Origin: a virus
Lineage: Duplodnaviria > Heunggongvirae > Uroviricota > Caudoviricetes
DNA: 64,000 nt
IMG/VR virus record: IMGVR_UViG_2721755646_000010
Direction: 5' to 3' (one strand)
The stretch's first letter is position 1, and each line of letters starts with the position of its first letter. A program made the position numbers. Positions 36,001 through 39,000 of the stretch are shown in pieces.

Positions 36001-39000
36001 CTCACAACACAGAACCTTTCAGGATGACCCTTGAGGATACCGGTTTGGCTGTCGGTGCCTTTCTGTGGGCTGGATTCCTGTGAGACAAGGTTCATCACTA
36101 AAAGGAAATAACCGATGAATATGATGGCCGTGCCGTTTCACGGCAACTCTCTTTATGTAGTTAACCATAATGGCGAACCATACGTTCCCATGAAACCTGT
36201 CGTTGCGGGGATGGGGCTGGCCTGGCAATCACAGTTGGCTAAGTTAAGACAGCGTTTTGCGTCAACTATAACGGAAATCGTTATGGTTGCTGAGGATGGG
36301 AAACAACGCAATATGGTGTCCATGCCACTTCGAAAACTTGCCGGCTGGCTACAAACCATTAATCCCAACAAAGTAAAACCCGAAATCCGCGATAAGGTCA
36401 TCCGGTATCAGGAAGAGTGCGACGATGTTCTTTACGAGTACTGGACGAAGGGTTTTGTCGTTAATCCCCGTAAAATGAGCGTGATGGAAGAACTCAACCA
36501 GGCTTGTGCTGACATGAAACGGGATAAAAACATTGCCAGTGTGTTTGCTACCGGGCTGAATGAGTGGAAACAGGTTAAAGCCGCGCATGTATCAAAAATC
36601 CGTACGCTGGTAAATGAAGCGAATATGCTGATTGATTTTGTCCTGGCTGATACAGGCAAAGGGAAAATAACAAAGGCGGATTGATGGGGTGGCTAATGAT
36701 ATCAGATAAACTCATAACGCTGGTGAAGAGCCTCTGTGTACTTGTCGGCATTTCATTTTCACTAATGCTGGTTGCTCTTTTTCTTTCCATGGCCTGGATG
36801 GCGTTGACTTCGGCAGGGCTGGTGGGGTGAGCATAAACCGAATGCTTTCCGCGTTTACCGTTATTCTGCTGGTGGTCTGTGGTGCGCTTAGTCTGGGGCT
36901 GAATCATTACCGCGATAACGCCATAACCTACAAAGAGCAGCGCGATAAAAAAGTCAGTGAGCTGGAGCTGGCAAATGCAACCATTACTGATATGCAGCAG
37001 CGCCAGCGTGATGTTGCTGCACTTGATGCCAGATACTCGAGGGAATTAGCTGATGCGAGAGCTGAAAATGAAACTCTGCGTGCTGATGTTGCCGCTGGTC
37101 GTAAGCGCCTGCGCATCAACGCCAACTGTCCAGGCTCCTTGCGTAAAGCCCCCATCACCTCCGGCGTGGATAATGCAACCGGTCCCCGACTGGCAGAAGC
37201 CGCTGAACGGGATTATTTCATCCTCAGAGAACGGCTGATGGCAATGCAGAAGCAACTGGAAGGAGCACAGGAATATATCCGTACCCAGTGTATACCGTGA
37301 TGTTTTGTTACGAAGGTGTTACTGGTAACGTTAAGGTAATTTAACAAAGAGTCAGTTCCGGACTTTATAGTGTGCTCAGTTCATGGCCAAAAACGATTTC
37401 TGTGATAAATATTTTGAATATTATTTACAGGTAAATGGAGTGGGGCACATGGATAGAAATATTACAATAGAGTATGAAGTATATGCCCGTATTGTATGGG
37501 CAGAGAAGGCAAAAACATGGTAATTCCGTGTGTTGCCATGATACCTGATTGGCAGAATTGTTGTTTGGTTTTGAGTATATAGTCAGCGTCTTTTGTTCGG
37601 TAATTGCTCTTTCAATTAAAATGCCAGATATGATTTGCTTTTCTTTGTTGTTTAGTTTTTTTGTATATTATTTTTATTGTTTTTATATAATTAGTTTTTT
37701 ATTGTTGTCTTATTAAGGACGGTAAATTCAGGATGGCAGTCTGTAGATAAACGGAGGTTACTTATGCTACATGATCACCTGGCAGAATGTCTGGAGAAAA
37801 AAGGACTGTACCGGAGAGCAGCTGAACGATGGGCAAAAGTGATGGTACAGCTAAGTGATGACCAGAAAAGAAAAGTGGCGGCACAGAAACGAGCAGAGTG
37901 TTTGCGTAAGGCGCGCCGGACTCCGGTTTCACCGGTGAACCTGACCGAAATAAAACAAGCGGTCAACAGACTACATTCTGAGTTGGGAATGGGATTTGAA
38001 GAGCGGCGGGTATTCCGACGATATAAAGGGACAGGAGAACAGAATACGTCCGGAAACGCGCGGTCAAAAAAATGCTAAAAAATATCTGAGAGCGTTATTG
38101 CCTGTTACCATAAGAAAAAGCGACTTTAGTGGTCGCTTTTTGTGTCATATATAAGTCGTTTAAGTAAACCTGTCTGAACAGGTTCTCTGGTCGTGTTTGT
38201 CTTTGTTGGGTACAAATTGAGAATATTTTTCATTAATTAATCTTCTTCTGCAGGCTTCAATAACCCACGCTGAAAAATTTCCTGAACCTTTCAGATCAAG
38301 AGCGATGTTAATTTGTTCAATCATCTGGTTTGGAAATCGGATGTTGCGGGTTGTTGTTCTGCGGGTTCTGTTCTTTGATGACATAATGTTGCCCCATATT
38401 CAGTGTTGCTGATTTGTATTATCTGAAGTTGCTTTTACGTTAATTTGATGCAGATCAATTAATACGATACCTGCGTCATAATTGATTATTTGACGTGGTT
38501 TGATGGCGTAGATGCACGTTGTGACATGTAGATGATAATTATTATCATTTTGCGGGTCCTTTCCGGCGATCCGACCGGTTACGGGGCGGCGACCTCGCGG
38601 GTTTTCGCTATTTATGAAAATTTTCCGGGGAAAATCATGTCGGTACTTCTCGAACATAACTATTTGTTTTTTCTAATATCGAATCCGTAAAGGTCCGACA
38701 TGAAAACGCCTGAAAAAGTCATTTTCGGGCACTTTCATGTCGGACCCTGTATTTGTTGTGAGACTGTTTCATGAAGGTTAATAAAAAGAAACTTGCCGAA
38801 ATTTTCAACGTGGATCCGCGAACGATTGAACGCTGGCAGTCTCAGGGGCTCCCTTGCGTCTCCGGAGGTGGTAAGGGCGTTGAATCTGTATTTGATACCG
38901 CCACGGCAATTCAGTGGTATGCGCAGAGGGAAGCTGATATCGAAAATGAAAAACTCCGTAAAGAGGTTGAGGATTACAGGGCTGCCAGCGAGGCAGATCT

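Follow-up and report, generated by a model that had tools for sequence, protein, structure and literature searches.

Which gene stands behind the AT-rich island that lies just ahead of the cohesive end site in this phage DNA, and does it belong to the regulators that switch on virulence? In the window (the whole 64,000-nucleotide stretch analysed, from a tailed phage of the Caudoviricetes, IMG/VR record IMGVR_UViG_2721755646_000010), the region very likely represents, with a probability of roughly 95%, the pchB cassette carried by a lambdoid prophage of the Sp11 type in E. coli O157:H7. PchB is one master switch for the attachment of O157:H7 to the gut epithelium, and its correct recognition therefore matters for virulence annotation. 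The gene is already known, having been described in 2004, and its exact allele has been assayed on a ler reporter, so that no new biology is added for the gene itself. What is added here are the exact borders of the cassette, its placement in the slot that holds bor in lambda, the position of its right junction within a DUF3950 open reading frame (ORF), and the observation that, among paralogues, only the promoter-proximal AT-rich core differs.

Identity of the gene

The ORF at 37764..38078 on the plus strand (315 bp) encodes a 104-amino-acid protein that is assigned, by the PF06069 profile and by identity to ECs_2182 of strain Sakai, to the group 1 Pch activators of LEE1/ler within the PerC family. 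A preliminary description had called this protein PerC-like and had staked the claim on a profile search; the claim stands, as the match to the PerC profile HMM scores 148.8 bits (cutoff 22.6, E 5.4e-44) and pairs ORF residues 1-89 with model positions 1-89 of 90. Alignment with PerC and with PchA, PchB and PchC, which had likewise been proposed, goes further and names the gene. There are no nucleotide differences from Sakai pchB (ECs_2182, prophage Sp11), the proteins are identical, and the entire interval 37201-38400 equals the Sp11 pchB interval, again with no differences. The two paralogues are close, pchA (ECs_1091, Sp4) lying one nucleotide and one residue away (L6V) and pchC (ECs_2737, Sp14) two nucleotides and one residue away (V58M). 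Positions 16, 172 and 183 have been named as discriminating among the three alleles (PMC5931665), and since the ORF carries C16, G172 and C183 as does Sakai pchB (pchA having G16, and pchC A172 and A183), it is the pchB allele.

Beyond this immediate family, PerC of plasmid pMAR2 in EPEC E2348/69 shares 47.1% identity with the ORF over residues 2-88 (tblastn against NC_011603.1, E 1e-17), and the annotation of the matching pMAR2 ORF reads PerC family regulator. Among 43 aligned PerC-family representatives (26-42% identity), R17, A19 and W23 are invariant, and A7, L10, E11, G14, R18, A20, R22 and C46 are conserved in at least 90%; the window protein has every one of these residues. PchB thus carries the family's N-terminal motif, A-x2-L-E-x2-G-x-[YW]-R-R-A-A-x-R-W, together with the cysteine near position 46. 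An AlphaFold2 model, built on a shallow alignment, shows five helices at a pLDDT of 70. Foldseek found no match to this model in the PDB, the family profile found none for Pch among PDB sequences, and a word-index homology search with alignment returned nothing beyond close Pch relatives.

Prophage setting and borders of the cassette

The identity of the gene is mirrored by that of its surroundings. In a BLAST comparison with the Sakai prophages, window positions 21978-64000 match Sp11 at 99.6% identity over 42 kb, with the gene order ant, Rz, pchB, Nu1 common to both, and positions 22000-46000 are 100% identical to O157 strain 180-PT54. The Sp11-type prophage as a whole extends over approximately 16890-62760. 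The pchB cassette of Sakai is without any difference from that of the window, although Sakai has an IS629 at the Sp11/Sp12 junction and the strain represented here lacks that copy. A prophage located beside ompW in strain TR01 also gives a 100% match, but it was rejected as the locus of the window, which is not colinear with it.

Comparison with lambda and with Stx1a-converting phages places the cassette, comprising the AT-rich region, pchB and a presumed terminator, at 37301..38236 on the plus strand. Its left border is the spanin gene Rz (36833..37300, plus strand; Pfam Phage_lysis, E 1.3e-46), the last lysis gene in the late operon, in which Rz1 is embedded at 37053..37238; RefSeq labels the identical Rz segment 'lysis protein'. 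Homology to lambda ends at 37278, within Rz, and restarts at 38237, while homology to Sakai Sp9 ends at 37290. Stx1a-converting phages are without the cassette, and in these the distance from Rz to cos is about 0.2 kb. The same slot in lambda holds bor, p78 and p79. The segment 37301-38236 is a 0.94-kb cargo element, or moron, that occupies the lambda bor slot, with Rz to its left and the cos-proximal backbone to its right. Like it, bor (lambda 46459-46752) is lysogenic-conversion cargo of atypical composition; the two are without sequence similarity, however, and bor, which is read from the other strand, specifies an outer-membrane lipoprotein that confers serum resistance, whereas pchB encodes a regulator that works in trans on a distant island. 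The atypical composition of the pchB cassette resides mainly in its regulatory part, with 33% GC upstream of the gene against 51% for the window, the coding sequence itself having 49%.

Immediately downstream of pchB, the sequence AAAAAGCGAC-N7-GTCGCTTTTT at 38115..38141 forms a perfect 10-bp inverted repeat whose predicted folding energy is -14.7 kcal/mol on the plus strand (z -3.6) and -11.9 kcal/mol on the minus strand (z -4.1). The hairpin probably acts as a bidirectional terminator common to pchB on the plus strand and to the convergent DUF3950 ORF on the minus strand.

The AT-rich upstream region

The preliminary description had pointed to a segment of approximately 450 bp with very low GC content and poly-A/T tracts, and such a segment is indeed present at 37301..37763 (plus strand). 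Its 463 bp have a GC content of 0.33, against 0.511 for the window, where only 0.73% of 463-nucleotide windows are equally low; the 100 bases at 37601-37700 fall to 18%, and there are twelve A/T runs of at least four, T7 at 37656 and T6 at 37695 among them. The region presumably holds the pchB promoter, regulatory sites and leader. A Shine-Dalgarno sequence, GGAGG, lies at 37752-37756, and a scan of 37301-37763 for the sigma-70 consensus gave no match; published promoter activity concerns the upstream region of pchA only (PMC7279287). Published work was searched for H-NS binding in the DNA ahead of pch, and no direct data were found. Given its AT-richness and T-tracts, the DNA upstream of pchB is probably bound by H-NS, and the silencing that had been proposed for it is plausible.

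Within this region conservation is uneven. Positions 37601..37725 (plus strand) form an extremely AT-rich core that is the sole paralogue-specific part of the cassette: in the core pchB is 71% identical to pchA and 70% to pchC, while the flanks are at least 95% and the coding sequences at least 99.4% identical. The distal part, 37301-37600, is 95-98% conserved across pchA, pchB and pchC, and its conservation while the core diverged argues for a function of the upstream DNA. A 55-residue ORF at 37549..37716 was rejected as a gene, its pchA and pchC copies being interrupted by stops, and a 46-residue ORF at 37383..37523, which is uninterrupted in all copies, was likewise rejected, having neither a Shine-Dalgarno sequence nor a family match and showing mostly nonsynonymous differences. 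An Rfam scan of 33000-40000, with E values up to 1 admitted, gave only chance-level miRNA and lncRNA matches, and no known RNA family was found in the AT-rich region.

Function and proposed mechanism

Activation of the LEE master regulator by PerC homologues on prophages, to which the preliminary description had referred, is established in the literature (Iyoda and Watanabe 2004, as cited in PMC4456613; PMC4764244; PMC5931665). The ler reporter assay that it had suggested has also been published for precisely this allele: cloned pchB raised ler::lacZ activity in MG1655 from 1,577 to 12,513 Miller units (about 8-fold), the highest activity of the five pch genes (PMC5931665). Derepression of LEE1 by Pch requires that H-NS/StpA/Hha/YdgT be present; Pch lowers H-NS occupancy, and Pch and Ler occupy many sites jointly (PMC4764244). 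In mechanistic terms, PchB, small and all-helical, binds to AT-rich sequences of the LEE1 (ler) promoter and of further virulence loci, where it remodels and displaces the H-NS/StpA/Hha silencing complex; Ler is thereby turned on and in turn activates the LEE type III secretion island in its entirety, together with non-LEE effectors. The biochemistry behind this scheme has been published for PchA, one residue away from PchB, and the ler::lacZ activation for the exact allele.

PchB has instructive counterparts. EPEC PerC (pMAR2, NC_011603.1 18493-18747) belongs to the same Pfam family, shares the LEE1/ler target and is likewise proposed to act against H-NS (PMC4764244). It is, however, plasmid-borne and the third gene of perABC under PerA control, whereas pchB is a stand-alone prophage moron; moreover, LEE expression in EPEC depends on PerC only conditionally, while EHEC needs Pch (PMC4764244). 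Ler and other H-NS counter-silencers resemble Pch in being small binders of AT-rich DNA that relieve H-NS silencing (PMC4764244). The DNA-binding domain of Ler is an H-NS paralogue, in contrast to Pch, for which no similarity to a known DNA-binding fold or solved structure was detected.

Alternative explanations

Given that the Pch family is heterogeneous, with PchD and PchE barely activating ler and PchE repressing csgD and flagella (PMC5931665, PMC6265319, PMC7369912), the ORF might in principle be a Pch that does not activate the LEE (group 2 pchD, group 3 pchE, or a gene like yfdN of K-12) and that serves another target, such as repression of curli or flagella. The chance of this is practically nil, as the ORF is nucleotide-identical to group 1 pchB, the allele with the strongest ler::lacZ activity of the five (PMC5931665), and this exact identity refutes such an assignment. 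A partnership between pchB and its neighbour, for example of a regulator with a ribbon-helix-helix (RHH) antagonist, at which the preliminary description hints, is also conceivable: the two genes are convergent with one common hairpin, and the N-terminus of the DUF3950 ORF is Arc-like in pattern. Such a functional pair is nonetheless very improbable, for the DUF3950 ORF occurs beside cos in lambda (91%) and in many lambdoid phages without pch, the Sakai pchA cassette is followed by an IS element rather than by a DUF3950 ORF, and only the last 25 DUF3950 codons are included in the cassette.

The 463 bp of AT-rich DNA pose a different question, namely whether they are junk or the scar of a recombination event, with pchB solely a passenger on the late transcript. 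The failure to find a consensus promoter in 37301-37763 fits this, as do the position of pchB downstream of S-R-Rz in the same orientation and the rise of group 1 pch transcripts on SOS or prophage induction (PMC5931665). Uninduced lysogens grown in DMEM, however, need the pch genes for LEE expression; LrhA, Lrp and butyrate act through the pch promoter region; and a synthetic PpchA-pchA fragment senses butyrate in a host that lacks the phage (PMC7279287; PMC4456613). The retention of 37301-37600 in three paralogues despite their diverged core also speaks against a scar, which is thus an improbable origin for this DNA. The preferred reading remains that of the pchB cassette of an Sp11-type prophage, with upstream DNA that is presumably regulatory.

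Expression, regulation and DicF

In the lysogen, pchB would be expressed from its own promoter under the control of host regulators, of which the literature offers LrhA and Lrp. LrhA activates both pchA and pchB (PMC4456613, PMC13012123), and the pchA promoter responds to Lrp with butyrate (PMC7279287, PMC4456613). As pchB is co-oriented within the late transcription unit, read-through from the late promoter is to be expected on prophage induction, and the reported rise of group 1 pch transcripts under SOS conditions fits this expectation (PMC5931665, PMC6265319). In RNA-seq resolved by single nucleotide polymorphisms, the SOS rise of pchB exceeded 3-fold at P = 0.09, only that of pchC being significant (PMC5931665).

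A further layer of control may operate at translation. According to two reports, the small RNA DicF opens a structure between the Shine-Dalgarno and anti-Shine-Dalgarno sequences of the pchA mRNA and so acts as a translational activator (PMC7769764, PMC7873438). In the region targeted by DicF pchB is identical to pchA, and DicF probably boosts the translation of pchB as well. The predicted DicF:pchB duplex has an energy of -48.9 kcal/mol at mRNA positions +48..+105, only modestly better than shuffles (z -2.2) and surpassed by unrelated windows; the fold of the pchB leader is unremarkable in stability (z -0.9). The early-left dicBF region of the window carries the DicF gene itself at 19346..19397 on the minus strand (Rfam RF00039, 75 bits against a gathering threshold of 48, E 1e-14). 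The DicF gene and its presumed target thus reside in one Sp11-type prophage. Tentatively, and with the odds rather against it, the prophage might constitute a self-contained switch in which DicF acts on its target pchB and the paralogue-specific core gives a distinct regulatory input. If true, the three pch copies, seemingly 'redundant', would be sensors with different wiring, each prophage supplying both a small RNA and an activator.

The convergent DUF3950 ORF and cos

A small convergent gene had also been predicted downstream, with an RHH-like product. The gene is real, a 74-codon ORF at 38160..38384 on the minus strand of the DUF3950/YlcI-YnfO family (PF13132, E 1.8e-18; NCBIfam YlcI_YnfO_N, NF041551), while its RHH character was not firmly confirmed. 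It is 91% identical over 53 residues to an unannotated lambda ORF at 48145-48303, and 30 homologues conserve residues 1-49 but vary in the tail. The ORF belongs to the lambdoid backbone beside cos and stands outside the function of pch. As regards the fold, the AlphaFold2 monomer (pLDDT 67) has coil at 1-18 and helices at 19-32 and 34-56, an arrangement compatible with an RHH protein, in which the strand arises only in the dimer. An hhalign comparison with P22 Arc placed NIRFPNQMIEQI on NLRWPREVLDLV in the RHH register, but only at P = 0.028, and a comparison with CopG gave no match. No Pfam RHH family was found for the ORF at E values up to 10, nor any match in the PDB by Foldseek or by sequence; an RHH fold is thus suggestive only.

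Homology to lambda, which resumes inside this ORF, covers the interval 38237-38583, aligned at 89.6% identity with the 347 bases at the right end of lambda (48156-48502). The cohesive end cosN, GGGCGGCGACCT, follows at 38584..38595 on the plus strand and equals lambda nucleotides 1-12; it occurs once in the window, as an exact match, where 0.01 would be expected by chance. The stop codon of pchB lies 506 bp before cos, in agreement with the placement of the gene just upstream of this site in the preliminary description, and the first head gene past cos is Nu1, the terminase small subunit, at 38771..39316 on the plus strand (Pfam Phage_Nu1, E 4.4e-91).

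Identity and Function of the PerC-Like Gene

The 104-aa ORF at 37764..38078 (+) is pchB, a gene that is already known and has been experimentally characterised. Its product matches the Pfam PerC family (PF06069) along the full length of the model (E 5.4e-44), identical copies carry the RefSeq annotation "PerC family transcriptional regulator," and the founding member, PerC of EPEC E2348/69 pMAR2, is 47% identical over residues 2-88 (E 1e-17). The preliminary description had proposed a PerC-like activator here; family membership holds, and alignment with PchA-C fixes the gene exactly, with zero nucleotide differences from Sakai pchB (ECs_2182, prophage Sp11), one from pchA (nt 16, L6V), and two from pchC (nt 172 and 183, V58M). 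According to an independent statement, positions 16, 172, and 183 are all that distinguishes pchA, pchB, and pchC (PMC5931665). An exhaustive HMMER search returned 84 representative clusters with E-values up to 0.001. Aligning 43 of them showed R17, A19, and W23 to be invariant and positions A7, L10, E11, G14, R18, A20, R22, and C46 nearly so; the window protein retains every one of these residues. The original observation is confirmed and its interpretation supported.

Pch proteins bind DNA of low GC content, at LEE1 and at numerous virulence loci, lower and remodel H-NS occupancy, and activate LEE1 only where H-NS, StpA, Hha, or YdgT repress it (PMC4764244). Full LEE expression and adherence require pchA, pchB, and pchC, according to Iyoda and Watanabe (2004), as cited in PMC4456613 and PMC6265319. 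The ler-reporter assay proposed at the outset has already been published: with ler::lacZ, cloned pchB was the strongest of five pch genes (12,513 versus 1,577 Miller units; PMC5931665). A structural model of PchB has five helices (pLDDT 70), and neither a sequence profile nor Foldseek found a relative among solved structures, in line with a published statement that Pch does not resemble known DNA-binding proteins.

Layout and Borders of the pch Cassette

Positions 37300-38400 form part of a lambdoid prophage's late region, downstream of a lysozyme gene and a P22-type antirepressor gene. The Rz spanin gene (36833..37300; Pfam Phage_lysis, E 1.3e-46), which contains Rz1, is followed by a 463-bp gap without credible genes (37301-37763) that includes GGAGG at 37752-37756, by pchB itself, and, 3' of pchB, by a perfect 10-bp inverted repeat, AAAAAGCGAC-N7-GTCGCTTTTT (38115-38141), and a convergent 74-aa ORF (38160..38384, (-)). 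A single copy of GGGCGGCGACCT, the cohesive-end sequence of lambda, is present in the 64-kb window; it lies at 38584-38595, ahead of Nu1 (start 38771, E 4.4e-91) and terminase A (start 39291). Because the 347 bases preceding cos align to the very end of lambda (89.6% identity to its final 347 bases), window position 38584 corresponds to lambda nucleotide 1. The 104-aa ORF, low-GC segment, convergent small gene, and cos were accordingly all located where they had been described. Between cosN and the Nu1 start lie a 25-nt inverted repeat (38692-38716 and 38722-38746), whose arms are 88% complementary and 5 nt apart, and, at 38635-38648, the CATGTCGG motif for a third time; they are probably cosB or terminase-binding sites unlike those of lambda; these repeats also draw sub-threshold "MIR8001" Rfam matches on both strands.

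Homology to lambda ends within the 3' end of Rz (37278) and restarts at 38237, that to Sakai Sp9, which lacks pch, ends at 37290, and Stx1a-converting phages pass from Rz to cos within about 0.2 kb, carrying neither pch nor the small ORF. These breaks mark 37301-38236 (0.94 kb) as a replaceable cargo cassette, occupying the slot that bor, p78, and p79 fill in lambda. Composed of AT-rich upstream DNA, pchB (49% GC), and a hairpin (-14.7 kcal/mol, z -3.6 on the + strand; -11.9 kcal/mol, z -4.1 on the - strand), the cassette has the anatomy of a phage moron. No sigma-70 promoter turned up in a consensus scan of the DNA upstream of pchB.

The convergent ORF, which belongs to the DUF3950 / YlcI-YnfO family, is not specific to the cassette, since it is present beside cos in lambda as an unannotated ORF (48145-48303 (-), positions 2746-2904 of the lambda stretch L009; 91% identity over 53 residues) and the window from 38250 on has matches in many lambdoid phages that lack pch. 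The right junction of the cassette (38236/38237) falls inside it and leaves its last 25 codons cassette-specific, which fits the family at large: across 30 homologues, residues 1-49 are almost invariant and the C-terminal tails unrelated. A ribbon-helix-helix fold, as first suggested, is plausible. In the AlphaFold2 monomer (pLDDT 67), two helices come after an extended N-terminal stretch, and hhalign placed NIRFPNQMIEQI opposite NLRWPREVLDLV of P22 Arc, with P = 0.028 only; no match was found to CopG, Pfam RHH families, the PDB by Foldseek, or PDB sequences.

Upstream DNA and Control of pchB

The gap between Rz and pchB has a GC content of 0.33, against 0.511 window-wide, a value matched or undercut by only 0.73% of segments of the same length, and 37601-37700 falls to 18% GC and includes runs of as many as seven T, bearing out the AT-rich island originally described. 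Searches of literature data yielded no H-NS binding upstream of pch; judged from base composition, such binding is plausible. Among the Sakai cassettes, the coding sequences are at least 99.4% identical to pchB and 37301-37600 is 95-98% identical between pchB and the other two; the sole strongly diverged part is the core at 37601-37725, where identity to pchB drops to 71% for pchA and 70% for pchC, whereas pchA and pchC are 91% alike. By sequence comparison, this paralogue-specific core may account for the reported difference in regulation between PchA and PchB. A 55-aa ORF in the core was rejected as a gene, being broken in the paralogues. A 46-aa ORF (37383-37523 (+)), intact in all three Sakai paralogues, has neither a Shine-Dalgarno sequence nor a family match and is probably not coding, its differences being mostly nonsynonymous (seven amino-acid changes in the pchC copy).

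Published upstream inputs are LrhA, for pchA and pchB (PMC4456613, PMC13012123), and Lrp together with butyrate, at the pchA promoter (PMC7279287). Since pchB lies inside the late transcription unit and in its orientation, Q-antiterminated transcripts should extend across the gene upon induction. This would fit the increase in group 1 pch (pchA/B/C) after SOS induction; the increase for pchB itself was more than 3-fold, but with P = 0.09 (PMC5931665).

A further input may come from the same Sp11-type prophage, which encodes DicF directly upstream of dicB (19346-19397 (-); Rfam RF00039, 75 bits). DicF is a published translational activator of pchA that pairs with an anti-SD element in the coding region and so frees the ribosome-binding site (PMC7769764, PMC7873438), and the pchA region reported to pair is identical in pchB. 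The computed DicF:pchB duplex (-48.9 kcal/mol, mRNA +48..+105) has a z-score of no more than -2.2 relative to shuffled sequences, and nothing is remarkable about the pchB leader fold, so the link draws on the literature. One prophage thus carries both DicF and its likely target pchB.

Distribution and Host Prophage

At least 80% of the 1.1-kb pch segment is present in 672 of 5,426 complete E. coli genomes, and pch appears among 50,697 deposited phage records in a single 1.6-kb fragment from an O157 host; the cassette is therefore observed almost exclusively in resident prophages rather than isolated phages. The ompW-site prophage of strain TR01 (NZ_CP033605.1, 1680000-1727000) carries paa, nleA, and nleH1-2, like Sp9, together with a 1.1-kb cassette of the pchB type, identical to that of the window, and lambda-type Nu1/A packaging genes. 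Sakai Sp9, in contrast, lacks pch and has another terminase module, a difference that is a mosaic exchange adding a pch copy.

The Sp11-type prophage that carries pchB extends over about 16890-62760 of the window. Positions 21978-64000 match Sakai Sp11 at 99.6% identity in one colinear block, 22000-46000 are 100% identical in O157 strain 180-PT54, and a neighbouring Sp12-type prophage makes up the initial 16.6 kb. An IS629 (IS1203-family) element at the Sakai Sp11/Sp12 junction (5472-6781 of the junction stretch L010) is missing from the window's strain (16607-16610). Above Rfam gathering scores, the Sp12-type prophage encodes sar antisense RNA (5971-6037 (-)), and the window further holds sok antitoxin RNA (26607-26781 (+)), two tRNA genes downstream of the Q region (31075-31147 and 31251-31324, both (+)), and STnc100 (32097-32269 (+)).
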